From: a virus
Lineage: Duplodnaviria > Caudoviricetes
DNA length: 64,000 nucleotides
IMG/VR virus record: IMGVR_UViG_3300005670_000019
Reading direction: 5' to 3' (one strand)
A program made the translations under genes and the position numbers. Positions 21,256 to 51,819 of this stretch are shown piece after piece. Within the stretch, counting starts at the first letter, position 1. Each line of letters opens with the position of its first letter. The notes below the pieces were generated by a model that saw only the letters and a program-made list of their open reading frames with translations, had not been told where the DNA came from and did no database searches.

Positions 21256-21638
21256 TGGTGGACACGACGGGGAATTGAACCCCGTGTCCAAAAAAACCTT
21301 AGAACTTCTTTTACGTTGCCTATGTAGTTTCCGCTTTTGCTGAGGAACTTTCGTTCGACTGCCAGGAAGCTCAGCGCATCTACCAACTGTCCTGTTTTCT
21401 TTACCCAAATCTCGTTCTGTAGTTAATGGTAAAGTGGTTCACTACAAAACCAGTCTTCTAAAATGATGCAACAAGAACTACGAAGACTTCTCATGCTTGT
21501 CACACCTCTTACTCAAGCGGCAAGAGGAAGGTATGCGTTTTCTGCATTTGTTTTTGAACACAGTATTTGATTGGTTATGTTCGCCCAATACAACGTGGAT
21601 ACATTCCTTGTGTTTCTCTGTCGAAACCTGTCATGCCC
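21256..21638 (-). ncRNA. ssrA: tmRNA, tag (A)AENAYLPLAA
   Basis: 5' GGGCATG pairs with 3' CGTGTCC-A-CCA with a G3:U wobble; T-arm GGGGTTCAATTCCCC; tag frame GCA GAA AAC GCA TAC CTT CCT CTT GCC GCT TGA at 21545-21513. Confidence 0.95.
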
Positions 21639-29504: not shown

Positions 29505-30260
29505 ATCTCCAATGTAACCTATCAAGTGCGGGATTTCAAACGATTCGCTCCAACCACTTGCCAAAACAAAATTCGAAGGTCTTGAATGTCATGGACACTT
29601 GAAGGCTCACAGGTGAATGCCTTGTCCTTGATCTCAAAAAGTAGATCCTTTTCCATTTGATTAAATGGAAAATCTTGCTTTGAAATCCAATCAGCCAAAG
29701 CAAAACTTGAAGTAAAGAGAGGGTTTGGATGATCGAGTGATGACTTAGGATGCAAAGGATCCATACATTCAACTCTCTTTCACAAAGAGAAGAAACCACA
29801 AGAGTTTAGAAGGGTCGATAATTGGGAGAAAGACATTCTCAACGCTGCACAAAAGCTTTTGTGCGTCATGACCGTGATTTTTGGCAATCTTATCAGCTTC
29901 AAGAATGTTTTCGGCAGTGCAAACAAAGACCACGTTCTTCCATTGAAGAACGGGTGAAGCGTTCAGGTTTGAAGAGCTGTGCGGATAAGAAATCCCCGGC
30001 TGCCGATAGAAGTAAATCTTCATCGAAGATGATGAATGAAAATCCATGGTACATTACCGATAAGGTCCACTTGGAGACTCGAAAGCGTCACCATTTTTTT
30101 GGTTCGATCCACTTCTCGAAAAAGGCGATTACATCGTAAGGACGGGTAGGATTATGCATGGAGACTACTGATACAAGTCTCCATCCATCCTTTGCTTGTT
30201 CGTTTGCTTCTCTTGCAACTTGATAGAAAGGAAGCTGTCGTTCGTCATAAACGTAAGGCA

Positions 30261-30902
30261 TCAGTCTCTTTCACTAAAACCGTTGAACTTCACAGGCTTA
30301 TTTAGCCAGTGTTCGTCAGTTTGAACGTGCTTTGGACGAACCCACTTTGCACAAAAAACTCCGAAGTTTTCATACGAAAACCTCTCACTTCGACGAACAA
30401 CATAACCCTCTTGCTTAGAAAGGTCAAGTTTTTCATGAAGCGTCATCATCGTGGTTTCATCCCACAATCCCCGATAAAGAACAGGAACGTGCTGGAGATC
30501 AAGCAACGAACACCATTCCACGGTTTCGTCCCATGAAAGACACTCGTTCTTCTCATTCCAGATCGAGAAGACCATGAAGAAGCTCGGAAGCTTTTCGTAT
30601 TCGATGGAATGAACAGCGGCAATATTCTCGCCACAAACTCGCCAACCTTCCGGAATGTCCTTTGCTACACGAGCGTGCAGGCGTCGGACGAAGGTGCGTG
30701 AAGGATGCTTTGCAAGCGTTTCAACAGCGCGTGCATGAAGATGGTCGTGGTAAAGCGAAGTATTTTCGCCATCCATCTTTTCCGTTACCACCACGTCCTG
30801 ACCAACAAAATGAGAAAGGTCGTAAAGAAACCGATCATCACTTTGCGTCCCTGGCGACCAAGGAACGTGATAGGTTCGTGGATATTTTACTGAGACTGTC
30901 AT
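30261..30902 (-). CDS. RNA ligase family protein
   Basis: KYPRTYHVPWSPG, TEKMDGEN, EGYVVR and AKWVR. Confidence 0.85.
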   Translation of the reverse strand: MTVSVKYPRTYHVPWSPGTQSDDRFLYDLSHFVGQDVVVTEKMDGENTSLYHDHLHARAVETLAKHPSRTFVRRLHARVAKDIPEGWRVCGENIAAVHSIEYEKLPSFFMVFSIWNEKNECLSWDETVEWCSLLDLQHVPVLYRGLWDETTMMTLHEKLDLSKQEGYVVRRSERFSYENFGVFCAKWVRPKHVQTDEHWLNKPVKFNGFSERD

Positions 30903-31384
30903 TGTTTTATCCACTTGAAAAAACAAACCAAACCCTGACCAATCAGGGTTCGAATTCGAACGGCATCATCTATACCAAAAGCGTTTGGAAAATCCAAAGG
31001 ATGCGAATGCATCCGATACTGATTTCGGATCCTCCAAAGTTTCTTTTGGTTTGGAATGTGCGTTTTCATCACTTGAAGTACAGATGCGAAACGGTGTCTC
31101 GATCTGCACCCTTGTATCCAAGGCGGAAGTAGTGGAAACGGAAAACCTTTCCGTTCTGAAAGACCTGAAACTCCTCCGGTCCGCAACACGGACAGGCAGT
31201 GTAGACATAGGTCTGCACGTTGTGCGTCTTGAGCTTTTGCTCAAGCTCCACGGCAAAACCACCGCGAACGACACTTCGAGCAACGACCTGAGCGGTCATG
31301 AAATCCATTCCGTCCCGACGAAGCTCCTTCGCGAAACGCTGCACCTGGCGCTTTAGAGTTGCCATCTATTCACCTCGTATTTAT

Positions 31385-31413
31385 AGACTACCATAGCACG
31401 AGGTGATTTTCAA
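31385..31413 (-). promoter_or_regulatory. Sigma70-type promoter
   Basis: TTGAAA-N17-TAGTCT with extended TG. Confidence 0.7.
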
Positions 31414-32483
31414 GAAATAGCTGTCGATTTTCTAAGTGCTTGATTTCGTTGAGTTTTTCAACTGCTTTTCTAGGCAGAAACCACACACGTATTCGTAGCA
31501 AATTCCGGACAAATGGTGCCCGCAATTGGTACAGTTATTGCTTTCGGGGTCCCTGTAGCAATTTTGACACACATCACTGTCAAGTCCCGAAATGGGGACG
31601 TCGCAAGCAATGCATGTCCTTATTTGGTGACTGTTCATTTGTCAGAAACCTTCGGACAAAATCTATCCATACAGTTCAAGTAGCTATTCATGGCATACCA
31701 TGAATTCTTTTCGACGATTTCCAAAAACTGTCCAGCATACCATCGAACAGTTTTATCGTCACCCTCTTTCATGTCTTCACCAACAAAACAATTAGTTGCA
31801 AGTCCTTCTTCTTCAAGAAGTTCTTTTATCCTAAAGTAGGCTGTCTGTGCTTCACGCACATCACCATTTTCTACCTTGATAAGGATCGAGCGAAGCTTCT
31901 TACGAAACTCAAGGTTCTGTTCTGGTGTTTTTGTTTCAAATACATTCATCGATATGGACCATTGAAAATGGTTTGTTTAGTTGCTTTGGTTGAAAAGAGA
32001 TTTCTTTCGATTCTTTTTAGCTTCAATAGAAGCTTGGCTTTGAAAGATAACTTTCTGCTTATTGGTTTTAGCCAATACCAACGCTGTTCCGGGTTGTCTT
32101 TGTAAAAGGCAACACAGTGCTTTCGCATTGGTTCAGTGAAGTTTTTTTCAATATCAAATGCCATATGTTCGCCTTTTTGAAATCGAAACATAATTTCTTC
32201 GGCTTCAATGGCTAAAAGCTTTTCATCGAAAGCCTCATGAAGCTCGTAGATTATGTCTTCAAGGTCATTCATGACTTTTTAGAATCAAACATGCAATACA
32301 CGAACATATAGACAAGAACTACAAAGTAGAAAAATGATAGAAAAAATGCTGTTTTTGCAGTGCCAGCAAAAGTAAGCAATCCAAGATCGGTGCCTAGCGA
32401 CATGCAAAGAGCCATTGCTGTCATAAAAATGAAAACTTGGAGCATTCTTTGAAAGATTGCAGTCTGCGTTTCAAGATTCTTAC

Positions 32484-32909
32484 TCATTTCTTCTTTCCTT
32501 TTCCAGAACAGGTTCGTGCGTTGTGTCCGCTTTCGCCACACTTGCCACACTTTCTTTCTGCCTTTTCTTTCTTCACAACCTTAGAAACTTTTTGAACAGT
32601 TCCATCCGCCTGAGTCTCTTCAACTTCTTGAAGGTTCTCTCGTCCAGCCGCCGCGAACGTTGCTGAATTCCAAACAACAGGACCAGCAATCCCCCAAGAT
32701 TCCTTGAGTTTTTCTTGCTCTTCCTTAGTCATGCGATCCCACGGATGGTGGGTTTTCATTTCATGAATACGTTTCTGTCTTCGTTCTTCTTCTTTTACAT
32801 CACGACACTTTGCTGAACAATAAAGGAAGAAGTTTCCTTTCATTTGCTCTTCAAGCTCGGGAACGACTTCGTTGCAATGATTGCATCTTGTATAGGAAAG
32901 CATAATCAA
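32484..32909 (-). CDS. Zn-finger protein with C-terminal CCHC knuckle
   Basis: CNHC...YCSAKC and RKCGKCGESGHNARTC. Confidence 0.65.
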   Translation of the reverse strand: MIMLSYTRCNHCNEVVPELEEQMKGNFFLYCSAKCRDVKEEERRQKRIHEMKTHHPWDRMTKEEQEKLKESWGIAGPVVWNSATFAAAGRENLQEVEETQADGTVQKVSKVVKKEKAERKCGKCGESGHNARTCSGKGKKK

Positions 32910-33202
32910 CCAAAATGAGCTTCGACAATAACTCCGTTATCCATGGAGCCGTCTACAACGATGTACTTATATTCAACACCATTATGAATTCTAGTTTCTT
33001 CCTTGAAGGACAAACTATCTTCACTAAGCTTGACGTTGAGGCGAGTGGGTTGGAAATCCCGAGTCAAGACCATCCTTACCTTTCCTGCCTGATAAACACG
33101 AACCCAAGAAATTTCTTGTTTGACTTGAGCAAGTGTCATTCCGATAAATCGTGAAGTGTCAGGAGGTGTTGGAGATTGAAATGTATCGTTATCGTCAGTC
33201 AT
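32906..33202 (-). CDS. Peptidase inhibitor I78-like protein
   Basis: FIGMT...VLTRDFQPTRLNV. Confidence 0.5.
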   Translation of the reverse strand: MTDDNDTFQSPTPPDTSRFIGMTLAQVKQEISWVRVYQAGKVRMVLTRDFQPTRLNVKLSEDSLSFKEETRIHNGVEYKYIVVDGSMDNGVIVEAHFG

Positions 33203-33570
33203 TTACTTTCCTTTGAATTGGAGCCTTATAACACATAAAAATCGGATTTTAAACTATTTGCTTCATTTTCTGTTAGCTCTAAGAGAAAATATCTATTACC
33301 TTTAGAGCCTAGACTTTTGTATTCATCGCTAATGATGCTAATCACGGCATAATGAATTACAGTATGACCTTCAAGTCTGAACACTTTAATAGCCCTGTCG
33401 TTTTCTTTTAAATTTTCAAACGAAATAGGCTTCATTAAACTAAGCATCGATTCACATTCATCGGCTGACAACATCAACTCTTCTAACATTTTTGCAACAC
33501 TATTATCAATTTTTCTCATTTGAAAAATTCTTTTTGCAAAATTCATTTACTTTCCTTTGAATTGGAGCCT
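33199..33570. repeat. 28 bp direct repeat (33199-33226 and 33543-33570) flanking ORF 33226-33546
   Basis: TCATTTACTTTCCTTTGAATTGGAGCCT occurs twice; on the minus strand it is a tRNA 3' end, an RBS and an ATG. Confidence 0.9.
33226..33546 (-). CDS. AT-rich hypothetical protein between direct repeats
   Basis: ORF track; RBS and ATG lie within the repeat. Confidence 0.6.
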   Translation of the reverse strand: MNFAKRIFQMRKIDNSVAKMLEELMLSADECESMLSLMKPISFENLKENDRAIKVFRLEGHTVIHYAVISIISDEYKSLGSKGNRYFLLELTENEANSLKSDFYVL

Positions 33571-33588
33571 CCCACGGGATTTGAACCC
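33563..33588 (-). pseudogene. 3' half of a split Thr-like tRNA
   Basis: GGGTTCAAATCCCGT-GGGAGGC-T-CCA; acceptor strand complementary to GCCTCTC at 34217. Confidence 0.8.
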
Positions 33589-33616
33589 TTGCAAGGACTA
33601 CGTTTTCTGAATCTCT

Positions 33617-33691
33617 TGGAGCCCGCGACTGGAATCGAACCAGCTCTCTCCTTATTACAAGTAAGGTGCATGACCATTGTGCTTCGCGGGC
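33617..33691 (-). tRNA. tRNA-Thr(UGU)
   Basis: CCTTA-CT-TGT-AA-TAAGG; CCA encoded. Confidence 0.92.
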
Positions 33692-34155
33692 GCATCTTCA
33701 AAACCTTTGTTTCCTTTGCGAAATCTCTTAGAGGTTTTCTCCCCTCCTTTTCTTCCCCAATTCCGGAAATTGGGCGTTAGAGCATGGCAATTCGGACAAA
33801 GAACTCTCAGATTTTGACGCTGGTTATTTGTGTGGTCGCCATCTATATGATCGATTTCCAATATCGATCCACCACATGCTCTTGTCTTGCAAAAGCCACA
33901 TTGAGAACACTTGAACTCACTTTCTGCCAAGAGACGCTGACGTCTCTTTTCGCGACTAAGTTGTTCGAATGGAACAGTTTCCCACTTTACATCAGTCCAC
34001 TGATTGGACGCGGCGCCCCTTCTCTTGCGCATTGCTTCATAAAATGCGTCAGACTTAGGAGGTGGCTCTTTTCTATCCGGATTGCTTTTGCAGAAAGTTT
34101 GATGATATCCTATACCCCTCTTGGAGAATTCGTTGTTGCAATATTGACATTTCAT
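33655..34155 (-). CDS. HNH endonuclease; stop codon inside tRNA-Thr
   Basis: LEIDHIDGDHTNNQRQNLRVLCPNCH. Confidence 0.9.
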   Translation of the reverse strand: MKCQYCNNEFSKRGIGYHQTFCKSNPDRKEPPPKSDAFYEAMRKRRGAASNQWTDVKWETVPFEQLSREKRRQRLLAESEFKCSQCGFCKTRACGGSILEIDHIDGDHTNNQRQNLRVLCPNCHALTPNFRNWGRKGGEKTSKRFRKGNKGFEDAPAKHNGHAPYL

Positions 34156-34187
34156 GACACTAACTATGGCAGAGCAAGGATACTTCT

Positions 34188-34217
34188 ACCGTTGCTCTAC
34201 CGTTGAGCTAGAGAGGC
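34188..34217 (-). pseudogene. 5' half of a split Thr-like tRNA
   Basis: GCCTCTC-TA-GCTC-AACGGTA-GAGC-A-ACGGT, then the sequence diverges; promoter at 34235-34263. Confidence 0.8.
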
Positions 34218-35230
34218 ATTTTGTGCTATGATCAACAATAGCAAGAAACCGACGAAATTTCAAGGAAAATCATTCAGTTCTTTTTTTTGACCCAATCTTG
34301 GAACTTTCCCCAAATGAGTGGGTTATCGAGGTGCAAAGATTTGTAAATCCAAAGTCCAATAAATGGCATTGAATACCAAAAAAGAATATGATAACCCCAC
34401 AAGGAAACACTTCCAACAAGTAGAAGTGACACTGCAAGAGAAATCAAAATCAAAATTGGAATAGCAAAAAAGAAAGTAAACCCCCAAATTGATACATGCG
34501 GATTTTCAAAAAGTTCCTCAACAAGAGCCATCCAAACAAAAAGGATCGTGCGAAATACTCGAAGTGGATCAAACTTCCATTTGATTTCATTTTTTGGTGG
34601 CTTCGATGGCGTACGATATCCGCCATTTTCATTGTTGTTTGTTGTCATTGGTGTTGACCTTTCAAAACGTCATCAATCCCTTGGTGAGATAAGTTCAAAG
34701 AACCATGTAAAGACGGTTTTGATCGTATTCTTCCAATCTCTTTTTAGGTAAGTCCTAGCAACCCATGCACAGAAAAATCCTGTGATGAAGTAAGTTATCA
34801 GAGCTAAGGCAAAAGCAAAAGTCCAACTCATAATACCTTCACAAACTTTCCGCGATTGAAATCATCTAATGGACAAAAGAATCTTCCAAAGATCATTTCT
34901 TTTGAAAATGGTGCTCTTTTTTTAGTTGAGAACTTTGAGTCTGTAGTCTCCAAAATAAACAAAGAAACAGAACTCCATTCCTCCGCACCCTTTCGAACAT
35001 AAATACGATCGATTTGAAAAATCGAATCTTTTGGAAAAGTCTTGTTGAATGCGTGTTTTTGAAATGTAGGGTTGGTCCATTTTGTTGGAAATGGAACATT
35101 TTCTGCCTCAAAAAGACACATGTTGCGGTGATCAACAATGACTGAAAATGTCCAATCATCAGGATTTTTAATTTTTGTTCCAAGTTCCGGAATGAAAAAC
35201 ATAATGAACCTTTCTCAGTTGAGAGAAATT

Positions 35231-35304
35231 TGGTACAGGTAGCCGGAATCGAACCGACCTCTCAGCACTGGCAATGCCGCGTAATACCAATATACCATAC
35301 CTGC
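35231..35304 (-). tRNA. tRNA-Gly(GCC)
   Basis: CGGCA-TT-GCC-AG-TGCTG; CCA encoded. Confidence 0.9.
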
Positions 35305-35566
35305 ATAGTTACCAGGGTTTTGAACTCCTTTATGAGTTCGATAAGTTTATCACTTTTCACAAAGGATAGTGCAATAAACTGCGTTTCAATTGTTCTAACT
35401 TTTCCCTGGTGTCTTGAGTGGTAAGCTACAAGAAAGTTAGCGGAGGGGAGACAACAACCTTTTGCACGAAACGCCCACAAAAGGTTCAGTACCCGGGATC
35501 CTCGGGTTTTATTTTGTGTGAACTTTCACTCCCAATGTTGAACACACTTTTCACTAATATTAGTGT

Positions 35567-35642
35567 TGGTCCGACATATGGGAATCGAACCCATCTCTAA
35601 CGGCTTATAAGACCGTCCCCTCAACCAGTTGGGTTATGTCGG
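35567..35642 (-). tRNA. tRNA-Ile(UAU)
   Basis: ACGGT-CT-TAT-AA-GCCGT; CCA encoded. Confidence 0.9.
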
Positions 35643-35664
35643 AAATACATGTATACTTATACGT

Positions 35665-36048
35665 ATGTCATTCAAACATTCTCAAGAAAGTTTATTGGAA
35701 TATCTAAAAAAATATTCTAACTCTAGATTGCCTAACACTCATAGAGTAAAATTACATTTACTCCAAACCAAATTTTTAGAAAACAAATGTTCAATTTGCA
35801 ATATGCCACCTTTTTGGTTTGGTAAACCCATTAGTTTCCATCTTGATCACATTGATGGAAACCCAAAAAACAATGAAGTTTCAAACTTCAGAATTCTTTG
35901 TCCAAACTGTCATTCTCAAACAGAAAGTTATTGCGGTAAAAAGAACACTAAAACCCAACACATAAGACAAAAATATTTTTGTCTTGATTGTAAATCAGAA
36001 ATTACATCAAGGGCAAAACGTTGCAAATCCTGTGCTCGACGAGCCTAA
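35665..36048 (+). CDS. HNH endonuclease
   Basis: FHLDHIDGNPKNNEVSNFRILCPNCH; TATACT lies 7 nt before the ATG. Confidence 0.9.
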   Translation: MSFKHSQESLLEYLKKYSNSRLPNTHRVKLHLLQTKFLENKCSICNMPPFWFGKPISFHLDHIDGNPKNNEVSNFRILCPNCHSQTESYCGKKNTKTQHIRQKYFCLDCKSEITSRAKRCKSCARRA

Positions 36049-36066
36049 CCATTTGCCTACCCTTCC
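36041..36066 (-). pseudogene. 5' remnant of a Ser-like tRNA
   Basis: GGAAGGG-TA-GGC-AAATGGTTAG-GCT directly after promoter 36076-36104. Confidence 0.5.
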
Positions 36067-36119
36067 ATATTCTTAATTATGCCTCAAATTCGGAGAGATT
36101 TCAAGGCATAATTCAAAAT

Positions 36120-36815
36120 TCAGTATCCATCAAGTCCCACTGTGTTTTCATAAGTATCGATGACAAGCGGTCTATGACCTGGCTCGTAACTTTCGTTACA
36201 GATAGCCGCATTGACCACAGTAGAGCCCCAGGGCATTTTGTAAACCCCGTAAGAGTAATGAATGTGTCCACACACAATCCATTTTGTCTTCGTCTCAGAA
36301 AGGCGTGTGGTGAGTTCTGGACAGCCATAATGAACAAGTCTACTTACGTACTTGTTCTTATAATCCGGACCAACATCACCATACATTGAGGGCGGACCAT
36401 GCGTAATCAAAACATCAGTTTCTTCGGGAAGTTGATCCCAAATGTCACGAGCCTCCGGTCCAGGCTCGTAACCCCATCCCCAACTTCCTGCAATTGGAGA
36501 ATAGCTTTCGCCATAGAAATTCAGACCATCAATGGTCACAAGTTCATTATGAATGAACTGAACATTTCCATCGTACTTTTCAAGATGGTACTTGTAATAC
36601 CTAGTGTTTCCAGAAAACTCTGCTTCATGATTGCCGCAAATTACGAGCTTATGTTCGTGAGGTTGAGCTGCAAACCATTTGGCAAATTGTTCAATTTGTT
36701 CAAGAGTTCCTGTTCGGGAAAAGTCGCCTGCATGAACGAGAACATCACCCATAGGAATTGGATGATAAAGCCTATCATGAAGACAATGAGTGTCACTGAT
36801 GCAGACGATTTTCAT
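36120..36815 (-). CDS. Calcineurin-like metallophosphoesterase
   Basis: SDTH, HAGD, GNHE, THGPP and GHIH. Confidence 0.92.
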   Translation of the reverse strand: MKIVCISDTHCLHDRLYHPIPMGDVLVHAGDFSRTGTLEQIEQFAKWFAAQPHEHKLVICGNHEAEFSGNTRYYKYHLEKYDGNVQFIHNELVTIDGLNFYGESYSPIAGSWGWGYEPGPEARDIWDQLPEETDVLITHGPPSMYGDVGPDYKNKYVSRLVHYGCPELTTRLSETKTKWIVCGHIHYSYGVYKMPWGSTVVNAAICNESYEPGHRPLVIDTYENTVGLDGY

Positions 36816-38396
36816 ACTTTATTCTATGATGATTTCGTCAGAATTTCAAACAACATTTCATTCTTCTTCTAGTTTTGTGAAGCGAATGTCCGTCTCGCAC
36901 TCAATAATCGCACCATTCTTACAAAGAGCTGCAACTCTGACAAAGCGTCCTGGAGAAAATGATCCCTTTCCAATGAAAGAAGAAACTTGATCATCCAAAT
37001 CAATAAGAAGAATGAATAGAGTACAATCTATGTACTGGTACTTTTCATTGAAGAAAACTAATGATTGAAACTTTCTTCTTGGAAAAAGAATTGTACCTGT
37101 TTCGAGACACATTTTAGAAAGTCTTTGGTTTGTTGGGTGATCGGACAAAAAACTTTTTCAATCTTTCAACGAAAGATTTCCACTTTTCTTGTCGCAACTT
37201 TGACTTCTCTTGTCGAAGTCTTTCTTTTTCTCTTTTTCTCTCAAGCTTCTCGTTGAGAGCCTTCGCTCTTCGGTCAGCTTCACAGTTTCCGCATTCATAA
37301 GCCCAATTAGCATTATGATCTAGAAATGTGTTGAAATACTTTTGCTGGCATTCGTGACAGAGAACTTTTCCACAAACACAACAAACAACGGGTTCTCCAT
37401 GTTCACAAATTGCGTTTCTTTCCCAACCTTTAGGCGGAAAGTCACGGGGTCGATGATATGCATGAAACGCCGCTGCTTTCCTTCGCAACCAATCAAAGTG
37501 ATGATTGTCACGATATTCTAGCTCAGCTTTCAGCCGAGCATTTTCTTTTCGAAGGTCTTCACTCATTGGAAGTTGCTTGTTTGTTAGGATTAGGAGGCAC
37601 AAGTGTTAGGTTTCCTACATATGTCCAACCATGAAAAAGAACACCTTCTTGATGCCGAAAAACTACTTCAACTCTTGGATTGGTGTCCAACTCTTGTGGA
37701 ATCTTGCTATGATTCGTGTATATCACATGTTCTAATCTAGACCACATTTTCTGGTATGGTCCTTTGTTTTGGAAATACAAAGGACCATCACCAATATACA
37801 TCCCTGTATATTTAGAACGAGTTATGTCCGCCACGAAGTCGTCAAATATCCAGTTTTTTGACGAAAAAAGACGTATTGATGGAAAGCGTAAATAAATTGG
37901 CGTCCCAGCTTCAACGACATGAATTTCTTCTGGATCGTCAAACATCATGTCCGGGCATTGGAGGAGCGCAAACGTCTGTGACGCAGTTGACAGGAGAGGC
38001 GCCCTTGACAACAGTCAAGACACCGCGAATTTTGTTGACACGAAAAACATGTTGCGAGAAGCCGACGGGAATGTCAAAATTCCAGCCGTTTCGTGCAGCT
38101 TCACCAGCCGAAGCGAAAGCTCCTAGGGCACGCAAAAGTTGCGGCATTCGCCACTCGCGGGGAGCAGTCCAAACAATGTCGGTCGGTTGAATGTCGCAGA
38201 CACCTTCCCAAAAGGGCTTGGAAAGTGCCGTTTGGCAATCCGGACCTACGAAAACCGTCCCGAAATCGACGAAGGACTGAACCTTTCCCCCCAGGAAAAC
38301 CTTGCATTTCTGCTCGATATCTCCCGCGAGATTGACCATCGTTTCGTTGTGCCGAGCCATTTCGCTCGCAAGATTTAGCATTTTCGACATGCCTAC

Positions 38397-38425
38397 ACTA
38401 TAGCATATGGGTCGACCATTTTCAA
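38397..38425 (-). promoter_or_regulatory. Sigma70-type promoter, leaderless ORF at 38390
   Basis: TTGAAA-N17-TATAGT with extended TG. Confidence 0.8.
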
Positions 38426-39358
38426 GTAATGCTAACCCCTTGAAATCATTGGTAAACTGCTCGGTCTACGCCGTGATTACAATCCTTTAGGGTCGCGTCG
38501 GGCAAGCAGAGCCAGTGTCCGCGTTCGATTTCCTCGAAAAGTTCTCGTTCAATTGAGTACGTTCTAATTTCATTATCGAACGAAAGGTCCACGGTCCAGT
38601 TTTCGGGATGGTGAACGGGAACCTGGCGACAAGATTGCACCTTTCCAACGGTCGTACATTGTGTGTTGTACGTTGTATATGGAGGGTGATATTCCTTCGA
38701 AGAAATAGTTCCGACATATCGGTCGCGACTAACATGATCACTGATTGCGGAACCAGCAAGATAAATCAGGTAACAAACAAAAAGAAATCCAACAACCATC
38801 AAAAGGTAAGGAAACAATCCTTTGAGGTCATCCCAAAGTCCTGCAATCTTCTCACCAATCCAAGAAAGATAGGAAGACTTCTTCTTGAGTTTTGCAAGTT
38901 GCTTGTGAAGATCATGAATTGTTTTGCGGCTTGAGAGAACTTCCTTATTCAAGGAGGAAATCTTTTCCTTACTCTCATTCAGCTCGCGGCGAATTCTGGC
39001 TTCATCATCCGATCTATACATGAGTCAAACTTTCAAAAGAAAGGGTTCGTTTTTTCAAACTGCGGTTTGTAACTCAACAGAAGTCTTGGCTCTACCAAAG
39101 TAGAGCTTTTATGTCCACCGGGCTCAATGAATTGAATTTCAATAAGTCCATCTTCATCCTCAAGTGAGGAGATTTTAGCTTCATGAACTTCAAGAGATTG
39201 TGGATAAATGCAAGGGAACTTGGGAGAACCATATTCATCAACTTCTGCTGAAAGAAGCCAAACTGTCTGCCCGATTTCAAAGCTCATACCAAACTGTCCT
39301 TACAAAGATAGTTGCCGAAGCAACAAAAGAAAAACTCAAAAGAAAGAGTGTCATAATT

Positions 39359-39432
39359 TGGAGTCGCCCGTCAGTAACGATCTGACCTCAACCAGTTTTG
39401 CAGACTAGTGCCATCACCTGATGGAGAGCGAC
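39359..39432 (-). tRNA. tRNA-Cys(GCA)
   Basis: CTAGT-CT-GCA-AA-ACTGG; U73 and CCA; atypical T-loop. Confidence 0.8.
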
Positions 39433-39440
39433 ATGTAACC

Positions 39441-39469
39441 ACTATAATGCGGTCGGAAGTTATTTTCAA
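39441..39469 (-). promoter_or_regulatory. Dedicated promoter of tRNA-Cys
   Basis: TTGAAA-N17-TATAGT, 8 nt before the tRNA. Confidence 0.75.
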
Positions 39470-39889
39470 CTAATCAGTTAGAATTTGCTTGAGTTTCTGT
39501 TCCATCTAAAGCACGAGTGAAAATCTGCTGCTCGATCGGAAGTAAAGTCTCTGAACATTCACAAAGACTTCCATCCACTTTCTTTACAGAATAAGGCTCG
39601 CAAGCAAACCTACAACTTCTGTCGGAATGAGAAACAGTCTCACTAATTGTTCTCAAAACTTGAACTCTTTCGGGATCTGGGTTTGGGAAAACATCATTTA
39701 CTGCACAAGTTCCAAAAAATGCAACGATTATGAGAGTTGCAAGAAATGCTCCGATGCGGAGCGTTCGTTTCTTTAGTTCAAAAGTCAATTCCTCTTCACT
39801 TTTTGAAGAAGGGCGGCGAGCAATGGCTTCATCCACAATTCTCTTTACAGAAGAGAGAAACTCTTGCTTTTCATCTGGATTTCTATACA

Positions 39890-40177
39890 TCACAAGTCCT
39901 TTACAATTCCGCAAACGTCCCTTGTCCAGCCGTTTACGAAACCTTTGTTGTTACTAATCTGAAAACCCTTAGTTTTGTCAATTGCTGAAATGAGGTGAAG
40001 AAAAATTCTTCCCCTAACCTTACAGAGAACAACGTTTCCAACTTCCAAAATGGAAGTATCATTCAATGGATAAACTGTGACTTCCTGTCCGCTCTTGATT
40101 CTTGGCAACATAGAGTTGCCTTTCGGATTGAAAGTAACTGTTTCGCCGTTCTTTACTTTTTCAAATACGTGTTGCAT
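39890..40177 (-). CDS. S24/S26 peptidase-like protein
   Basis: GNSMLP serine motif. Confidence 0.55.
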   Translation of the reverse strand: MQHVFEKVKNGETVTFNPKGNSMLPRIKSGQEVTVYPLNDTSILEVGNVVLCKVRGRIFLHLISAIDKTKGFQISNNKGFVNGWTRDVCGIVKDL

Positions 40178-46114: not shown

Positions 46115-46119
46115 TAAAT

Positions 46120-51197: not shown

Positions 51198-51214
51198 AAA
51201 AGGAAACTATAATT

Positions 51215-51617
51215 ATGTCAAGAAAACGAAATCCAAAAAATTGGTGTCTGAAATGTAGTAGCCGATGTAGAAATTCTAGAAGCAATTTATGCAGTATTTG
51301 TCATTCACAACAATTAAGTGTGAATTTTGGACAAACATATCGAATTGCTGATTTCAGCCAACTTCAATCTAGACACAGATTTCAACCTATACGAAATCAT
51401 GCCAAAAGAGTTATGAACTCGTCAAACAAAGAAAAAAATTTGCAATGTTTGTGGTTACAACAAACATGTTGAAGTTGCTCATCTAAAACCGATTCACTCT
51501 TTCCCCAAGGAAACATTATTAGAAACAGTAAACAACATTTCCAATCTGTTATATTTGTGTCCCAATTGTCATTGGGAACATGATAATGGGTTATTAGATG
51601 CAACAACTTCACAATGA
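51215..51617 (+). pseudogene. HNH endonuclease broken by one extra A in an A7 run (51432-51438)
   Basis: Removing one A gives ...KEKICNVCGYNKHVEVAHLKPI...NNISNLLYLCPNCHWEHD. Confidence 0.8.
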
Positions 51618-51819
51618 AACAATGACACATGATGCAGCAAAGCGTTCATCTTTTTTAGAAAGAAAACGTTGAGCTGCTTCATATGTAGCCCAAGTCTTTG
51701 TATCCGGATCAAGAGGGTCCTGCGTATATGGTTTCCGATTTGTTGATCTTTTCGTCACGTAACCATGACAGTCCCAACGAATTACGAACTTGCCCATATA
51801 AACCTCAAATCCTTTAATT

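Follow-up and report, generated by a model that had tools for sequence, protein, structure and literature searches.

A putative mobile cassette of an HNH endonuclease gene and a tRNA-Thr(UGU) gene nested in the remnants of a phage tRNA-Thr gene

Organization of the Thr locus

We analyzed a stretch of 64,000 nucleotides (nt) of the phage IMGVR_UViG_3300005670_000019 (Duplodnaviria; Caudoviricetes), hereafter called the window, and focused on a locus where an HNH endonuclease gene and an intact tRNA-Thr(UGU) gene lie between two fragments of another tRNA-Thr gene. All coordinates are those of the window, and this Thr locus is read on the minus strand. This uncultured phage is represented only in metagenomes, namely of bioreactor sludge, wastewater, and aquatic samples in at least 10 studies. 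A blastn search of the GenBank phages (n=50,697) gave no match to the locus, and a search of IMG/VR with two flanking proteins returned no relatives. A first-pass annotation of this DNA, made from the letters alone, had described a promoter, the 5' half of a tRNA, an HNH gene, an intact tRNA-Thr(UGU), and the 3' half. All of these elements were found on the minus strand, as follows (L286 and L287 are cassette-free contigs described in the next section):

34263-34235, minus strand: sigma-70-like promoter TTGAAA-17-TATTGT of the resident tRNA-Thr gene (consensus scan)
34217-34188, minus strand: 5' remnant of the interrupted tRNA-Thr gene, GCCTCTCTAGCTCAACGGTAGAGCAACGGT, 30 nt, with the acceptor 5' strand, the D-arm, and the 5' strand of an anticodon stem (profile match)
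34193-33589, minus strand: entire inserted segment, 605 nt, in place of 25 resident nt (tRNA positions 26-50) (BLAST against L286 and L287)
34187-34156, minus strand: cassette leader, 32 nt, ahead of the HNH start codon, with one TCCTTGC and TTGCTCTGCC
34155-33655, minus strand: HNH endonuclease gene, 166 amino acids (aa) (list of open reading frames, ORFs)
33691-33617, minus strand: carried intact tRNA-Thr(UGU), atypical (ARAGORN; Rfam)
33616-33589, minus strand: spacer of 28 nt from the inner tRNA to the 3' remnant, part of the insertion, with the second TCCTTGC
33588-33563, minus strand: 3' remnant of the interrupted tRNA-Thr gene, GGGTTCAAATCCCGTGGGAGGCTCCA, 26 nt, with three T-stem pairs, the T-loop, the acceptor 3' strand, U73, and CCA (100% match to L286)

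The two outer fragments had been read as the halves of one Thr-like tRNA, and their ends agree with this reading. The acceptor strands GCCTCTC and GGGAGGC form seven pairs out of seven, one of them G-U, and the ends G1-C72, C2-G71, and U73 are those of the three other Thr tRNAs of the window. We built a profile from 45 distinct phage tRNA-Thr(UGU), gathered with the D-arm and anticodon-stem pattern of GCCTCTCTAGCTCAACGGTAGAGCAACGGT (82 of the 120 IMG/VR matches to this pattern are tRNA-Thr(UGU)). The 5' remnant aligns to positions 1-31 of the profile and then ends (nhmmer E 7e-6). The T-stem that remains between the outer remnants has three pairs and an A.G mismatch. The outer halves cannot form a tRNA because the anticodon arm is gone. 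ARAGORN called no outer tRNA when introns were allowed up to 900 nt and thresholds were lowered. No Rfam intron family was found at E<=1 in the region 30000-40000, nor was there a match to Intron_gpI, and the HNH ORF is free-standing, outside any self-splicing intron. The ORF list and the PHROG matches revealed no transposase-like ORF, and no bases are duplicated at the junctions.

The 5' remnant begins 14 bases downstream of the -10 box of the promoter, and this promoter is the only promoter-like site now upstream of the cassette. The window holds eight copies of its motif, TTGAAA-N16-18-TATNGT, every one of them on the minus strand; 0.36 would be expected. Two of the eight occurrences precede invaded tRNA genes, here and at the Leu cassette described below.

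An intact tRNA-Thr gene at the same site in sister phages

The gene downstream of the Thr locus, of 141 aa, has a 98%-identical relative on two Logan contigs, L286 (297 kilobases, kb) and L287 (11.9 kb). On either side of the locus, their flanking DNA is 96-97% identical to that of the window, and the promoter is 100% identical. In place of the nested arrangement, both contigs have behind this promoter a single intact tRNA-Thr(CGU), composed of GCCTCTCTAGCTCAACGGTAGAGC, TCCCGCCTCGTAAGCGGAAGGTTAC, and GGGTTCAAATCCCGTGGGAGGCTCCA in succession. The match to the window is 100% over 34278-34194 and 33588-33543. Within the tRNA gene, the first 24 nt (34217-34194) equal L286 3611-3634 and the last 26 nt equal L286 3660-3685, both at 100%. 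In other words, the identity of the remnants to the intact gene of their own lineage stops after position 25 (34194) and restarts at position 51 (33588). The 5' half had been thought to break at the anticodon loop. The half is indeed there, but the own-lineage identity ends earlier, and the letters that follow, AACGGT, are of another lineage's type (see below).

The same cassette-free form was found in metagenome contigs. The joint between 33588 and 34194 is present in Logan contigs of runs X5, X6, X8, and X11, which come from wastewater, activated sludge, and aquatic samples of four studies. In X5 and X8, the two runs in which the joined letters were read out, the joint holds 25 letters. The cassette-free DNA of L286, L287, and the contigs of the four runs is otherwise 96-100% identical to the window. 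Rebuilt from these contigs, the empty site can be folded into a 75-nt tRNA-Thr(UGU), identical to the CGU form at 74 of 75 positions. Hence, the borders of the insertion and the intact ancestral gene are both observed in sister phages, and the two halves come from one gene: L286, L287, and the contigs of the four runs hold a single tRNA-Thr with these ends. The proposed match of isotype between the interrupted gene and the carried one also stands, since the resident gene is a tRNA-Thr and in two runs the unbroken gene has the UGU anticodon of the carried tRNA. The resident gene (L286 3611-3685) is polymorphic only at the wobble base, with UGU in two runs (X5 and X8) and CGU in two contigs.

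The empty site also bears on two details of the insertion. The heptamer TCCTTGC, which had been noted near both junctions as a possible target duplication, does occur there (34180-34174 and 33597-33591). However, it is neither a target duplication nor a microhomology: it is absent from the empty site, 25 nt were replaced, and the 7-mer is not kept in L201, a related filled locus. We also considered that the spacer, TTCAGAAAACGTAG, might be what is left, in decayed form, of the outer tRNA's anticodon stem and loop, and rejected this, as the empty site puts the spacer within the insertion. Apart from these, two single-gene insertions or deletions (indels) that lack a nuclease flank the cassette and are missing from L286 and L287: 34672-34279, with a membrane-like ORF of 124 aa, and 33542-33227, with an ORF of 106 aa. 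A repeat that comprises the tRNA 3' flank, a ribosome-binding site, and an ATG delimits the second of these indels.

The same cassette in a diverged lineage

A second pair of filled and empty sites was found in another lineage. The metagenome contig L201 has the promoter, 5' remnant, leader, HNH gene, inner tRNA, spacer, and 3' remnant in the order of the window. Compared with the window, its segments are similar to different degrees:

Outer-tRNA position 1 to its CCA, 658 nt: 91.8% nt identity
Neighbouring gene: 68.6% nt identity, 66% aa identity
DNA further upstream: not alignable

The similar stretch of 658 nt is bounded exactly by position 1 and the CCA of the outer tRNA. Within it, the leader is 91% identical and the 3' remnant is identical at 24 of 27 positions. 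The cassette-free counterpart is L285, with flanks 81-87% identical to L201 and an intact canonical tRNA-Thr(UGU) at the site. Positions 1-31 and 51-76 of this tRNA are the two remnants of L201. The promoter hexamers are kept in L201 and L285, and the spacer between them has diverged. Hence, the same cassette sits in the orthologous tRNA-Thr gene of two strongly diverged phage lineages. Because the cassette is far more alike between the window and L201 than the neighbouring gene is, the comparison shows lateral spread, and such sharing between diverged lineages is taken as the classic signature of a homing element.

The letters next to the 5' junction suggest where the cassette of the window came from. 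Window 34193-34188 reads AACGGT (positions 26-31), as in L285 and L201, where the window's own lineage has TCCCGC. In addition, A50 of the window makes the A.G mismatch with the window's own G64, and would pair with T64 of L285. Both traces fit a cassette that came from an L285-type background and brought along a few bases of the tRNA broken there. Co-conversion from a donor of the L285 type would then have had its crossovers in the D-arm (positions 20-26) and in the T-arm (50-57).

The HNH gene and the carried tRNA

The HNH protein has the core EIDHIDGDHTNNQRQNLRVLCPNCH and an N-terminal segment, C-x2-C...H...C, that resembles a zinc finger. Its motif layout is C84-x2-C87 ... DH-IDGDH-TNN-x5-N-x5-C-PN-C-H, with the catalytic motif and the flanking cysteine pairs present. 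It matches PHROG 10822, 'HNH endonuclease', with E 1e-18, and a sequence search of the PDB gave only weak matches to the zinc fingers of McrA and DotN (E 0.03-0.1). The proteins of the window and of L201 are 95% identical, and 23 of the approximately 34 nt differences in the gene fall at third codon positions, which are 85% identical against 93% overall. This preponderance of third-position differences shows that the HNH gene is under purifying selection.

The last 37 nt of the HNH ORF overlap the inner tRNA, and the HNH stop codon TAA corresponds to U36-A37-A38 in the anticodon loop of that tRNA. The location of the stop had been correctly noted. Reading through into the tRNA is common in the clade of this HNH, although not universal: in loci L003, L203, and L204, the HNH gene stops ahead of the tRNA.

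The inner tRNA scores 55.8 bits against the Rfam tRNA family (gathering score 29) and is the only Thr(UGU) gene that ARAGORN finds in the window. It has oddities, namely A8 and the D-arm GCAC/ATGC, and is identical to the resident gene that it replaced at 46 of 75 positions. In nine relatives the cloverleaf is kept, with compensatory changes at 7 of 21 pairs, which shows that the carried tRNA is maintained by purifying selection.

Linkage of the HNH clade to tRNA-Thr

The HNH protein has 309 homologues at E<=1e-10. To study their neighbourhoods we used 41 distinct loci from IMG/VR and the metagenomes of the Joint Genome Institute (JGI), with 47-95% identity to the window protein, some aligning only from about residue 50. 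A tRNA-Thr(UGU) directly adjoins the HNH gene in 33 of the 41, mostly downstream and often overlapping the end of the gene. Hence, this HNH clade is tightly linked to tRNA-Thr(UGU) genes.

A 5' remnant of a canonical tRNA-Thr lies just upstream of the HNH gene in 13 loci. Among the loci of the clade, L001/L004 and L204 also have a 3' remnant, whose acceptor strand is complementary to the 5' remnant within each genome:

Window: GCCTCTC / GGGAGGC
L204: GCCTCCT / AGGGGGC
L001/L004: GCCACCT / AGGTGGC

This covariation of the acceptor strands fits the origin of each remnant pair from a resident gene that would once have been functional. The break points of the remnants vary by lineage, and fall after positions 25, 26, 31, or 33. 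We considered a cassette that carries only a new 5' half, which would be fused to the resident 3' half. This fits L203, but in most loci the inner tRNA has a self-consistent acceptor stem unrelated to that of the remnant, and we rejected it.

All 13 remnant-bearing loci share a leader element, TTG[C/G]TC[T/A]AC, upstream of the HNH start. In its extended form, TTG[C/G]TC[T/A]AC[C/G], it lies 10-45 nt ahead of the start (within 34156-34187 in the window, and in the 12 other loci). The element and the D-arm strand of the 5' remnant, GGTAGAGCAA, are reverse complements of each other, and leader and D-arm are predicted to form a hairpin, which is strong in L203, L224, and the window (z -4.1) and weak in L201, L003, L208, and L209. 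Alternatively, the element could be the decayed variable loop and T-stem of the broken tRNA.

Two further observations concern tRNAs beside these HNH genes. In L001, at 2846-2912, and likewise in L004 and L213, the 3' remnant is chimeric, with a body like that of tRNA-Lys(UUU) (5' end GGGACTG) and the acceptor AGGTGGC, fully complementary to that of the tRNA-Thr 5' remnant lying 670 nt upstream. Two different tRNAs have thus been joined, by a crossover in the T-arm. Many other phages have a tRNA-Thr(UGU) of 82-89 nt beside a gene of this HNH family, as in eight loci: L001 2721-2804, L002 4497-4581, L209 640-728, L220 1646-1734, L226 2073-2161, L238 1247-1335, L243 2023-2109, and L245 510-598. 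These tRNAs have a long variable arm, a D-arm like those of Ser and Leu tRNAs, and the Thr-like acceptor GCC...GGC-U, and are often directly followed by a tRNA-Ser(UGA). Their appearance is that of a Thr tRNA reconstructed on the scaffold of a type-II tRNA.

Interpretation and alternatives

We consider it likely that a mobile cassette of an HNH gene and a divergent tRNA-Thr(UGU) gene was copied into the resident tRNA-Thr, that the anticodon arm and variable loop of the latter (positions 26-50) were lost in the process, and that the two ends are dead remnants. The unit would be a free-standing homing-endonuclease cassette supplying a substitute for the tRNA gene that it destroys, presumably through cutting by the HNH protein. 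The interpretation given in the first-pass annotation is supported.

The cassette might have spread as follows. The HNH protein would cut cassette-free tRNA-Thr genes of co-infecting phages, as SegB of phage T4 does in tRNA genes (PMC2330249). The break would be widened and repaired from the genome bearing the cassette, such that the outermost bases of the recipient's gene stay in place. We propose that the crossovers lie in the D- and T-arms because tRNA arrays are shuffled between phages and only the tRNA itself is shared. The carried tRNA, only about 60% identical to the target, would escape cutting and restore the decoding by Thr(UGU). The resident promoter would now transcribe the HNH gene and the tRNA as one RNA. 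When RNase P excises the tRNA, the HNH message would lose its stop codon, which is part of the tRNA, and this may limit the production of the nuclease.

Several points weigh against this account. The HNH protein could be an inactive passenger. Its scores against Pfam stay below the cut-offs (21.2 bits against 24.8 for HNH_3, PF13392; 18.7 against 21.4 for HNH, PF01844); several of its homologues have precomputed matches to PF13392 or PF01844. In a global alignment of the window with L201, the spacer that follows the inner tRNA is only 33% identical, whereas the rest of the cassette is 91-97% identical, a contrast not accounted for by one recent transfer of the entire unit. Finally, the two types of target, that of L285 and that of the window lineage, have unrelated anticodon stems, so the recognition site would have to be elsewhere. 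It probably lies in the D-arm, the variable region, or the T-arm, or else the event in the window lineage had another cause.

One such cause might be the ordinary mosaic recombination of phages at conserved tRNA sequences, with the HNH gene as a passenger that is inactive or has another target. The crossovers do fall in the most conserved segments of the tRNA, the D-arm and the T-arm, where general recombination is possible, and the nuclease-free indels relative to L286 (34672-34279 and 33542-33227) indicate that indels are frequent here without a nuclease. We nevertheless find this explanation unlikely. It accounts poorly for the 33 of 41 homologues that adjoin one tRNA species, for the purifying selection on the HNH gene, for the absence of at least four HNH-containing stretches of the window from relatives (see below), and for the orthologous gene being struck in two diverged lineages. 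Another possibility is that the window is ancestral and that its relatives lost the cassette by deletion, as presence and absence by themselves give no direction. Yet the cassette-free form has 25 nt that the window lacks and that complete a foldable tRNA, which a deletion cannot create, and both of the more distant lineages hold intact tRNAs at the site, making this scenario very improbable. Least credible of all is that the outer halves are a functional split or intron-containing tRNA from which the 600-nt insert is removed or whose halves are joined in trans: the acceptor strands pair fully, CCA is encoded, and the 3' remnant is better kept between the window and L201 than the adjacent spacer, but 25 nt with the entire anticodon arm are missing relative to the intact gene, neither ARAGORN with introns nor the group I intron search finds support for it, the T-stem is reduced to three pairs and a mismatch, and the break points are lineage-specific.

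The account of a cassette copied into the resident gene may be extended to the other members of the clade. The cassettes might be cut-and-replace gene drives on a single tRNA species that need no synteny in the flanks. The D- and T-arm remnants would serve as portable homology arms between unrelated neighbourhoods, and each jump would install an odd, nuclease-proof isoacceptor. We put this forward tentatively, as an idea that falls a little short of being as probable as its negation. If it is true, homing endonucleases would be a main engine of the turnover of tRNA arrays in large phages, and this could explain odd shapes of phage tRNAs, such as the A8 type and the long-variable-arm tRNA-Thr of the relatives.

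Comparison with known systems

Free-standing homing endonucleases in phage tRNA clusters are already established, with SegB of T4 and the F-Tfl enzymes of T5. SegB is a GIY-YIG homing endonuclease of the T4 tRNA cluster (PMC2330249; PMC13096335). In phages without SegB it makes its cuts inside tRNA genes, and it promotes the inheritance of itself and of the flanking tRNA genes (PMC2330249). The processing of the tRNA-containing transcript has been suggested to limit the expression of SegB and of the T5 enzymes (PMC2330249). Like SegB, the nuclease of the Thr locus is encoded by a gene that stands free within the tRNA array of a phage. However, SegB belongs to another nuclease family, lies between tRNA genes, and recognizes a generic T-loop motif, whereas the Thr cassette encodes an HNH enzyme, is nested in the remnants of a broken tRNA, and carries a replacement. 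Neither the nesting nor the replacement is described for SegB. The T5 enzymes F-TflI/II/IV are closer in type, being HNH-type site-specific endonucleases encoded in the region of T5 that holds the tRNA genes (Akulenko et al. 2004, cited in PMC2330249). As in the window, their ORFs are embedded in a phage tRNA cluster, but the descriptions given via PMC2330249 include neither flanking tRNA halves nor a carried isoacceptor.

A parallel for a nuclease that carries along a substitute for the part of a gene that it displaces comes from fungal mitochondria. There, endonuclease ORFs insert together with a foreign C-terminal part of the gene, in atp6 of Allomyces and in atp6, atp9, cox2, and nad3 of Glomus (PMC3630166). 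The native segment becomes an unexpressed downstream remnant that matches the intact gene of a close relative, and the inserted copy is divergent (PMC3630166). In contrast with the Thr cassette, the mitochondrial targets are protein-coding, the replacement is partial and in frame, and the nucleases are of the LAGLIDADG or GIY-YIG families. The Thr cassette, for its part, carries a complete tRNA gene, and both ends of its target persist as remnants. A large insert with a nuclease ORF at the anticodon region is also found with group I introns that encode homing endonucleases in the anticodon loops of bacterial tRNAs. The Thr cassette differs from these by the lack of a ribozyme core and by the deletion of the target's anticodon arm, such that splicing could not restore the tRNA. 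It differs from transposons and insertion sequences in that it replaces 25 nt, duplicates none, and has no transposase-like ORF.

Our search of the literature, which was incomplete in coverage, found no description of a cassette of a nuclease and a complete tRNA nested in the remnants of the target tRNA. The Thr cassette is thus apparently an undescribed variant of intronless homing. In this reading, the element occupies the gene that it targets, destroys that gene, and makes up for the loss with a spare tRNA, a solution unlike the splicing of introns or inteins. The evidence at this locus is unusually clean, with filled and empty alleles in flanks that are 96-100% identical, several independent wastewater samples, and a second pair of lineages, and the six-base donor trace points to the direction of transfer. 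It raises the questions of which sequence of the tRNA gene the HNH protein recognizes, how little homology suffices for homing, and how such elements shape the tRNA repertoire of jumbo phages and its odd structures. It is also a warning for annotation, since what looks in a phage array like a 'split tRNA' or a tRNA fragment is usually a scar.

A Leu cassette and other polymorphic stretches

The nested arrangement had been suggested to be a recurring strategy with a different HNH at each site, and a second cassette with its own empty site bears this out. It has the same plan at a tRNA-Leu gene. This and two other stretches of the window differ from relatives:

46724-46071, minus strand: Leu cassette (empty site in X8 and X11)
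35571-36047: 477 nt with an HNH gene on the plus strand, beside tRNA-Ile(UAU) (54 other letters instead in X6, X8, and X11; missing from L286)
51210-51814: 605 nt beside tRNA-Gly(UCC) (missing in X8 and X11)

The order of the Leu cassette is a promoter (TTGAAA-17-TATAGT), the 5' end of a tRNA-Leu fused to the HNH start codon, the HNH gene, an intact tRNA-Leu(GAG), and the 3' remnant, and the remnants show a perfect acceptor match of 7 base pairs. In contigs of X8 and X11, position 46116/46113 is linked to 46659 by 20-23 intervening letters; when rebuilt, the site is an intact 88-nt tRNA-Leu(AAG). The swap therefore alters the anticodon within the CUN family, from AAG in the resident tRNA to GAG in the carried one. 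The Thr and Leu HNH proteins are alike in the catalytic core only, with 46% identity over 56 aa. At least four HNH-containing stretches of the window are polymorphic, i.e., missing in relatives.

In at least two HNH genes, those of the Thr and the Leu cassettes, the stop codon lies inside the anticodon loop of the downstream tRNA. The phage has its own transfer-messenger RNA (tmRNA) gene at 21256-21638. This gene is noteworthy here, as excision of the tRNAs would leave stop-less HNH messages, which would be substrates of tmRNA.

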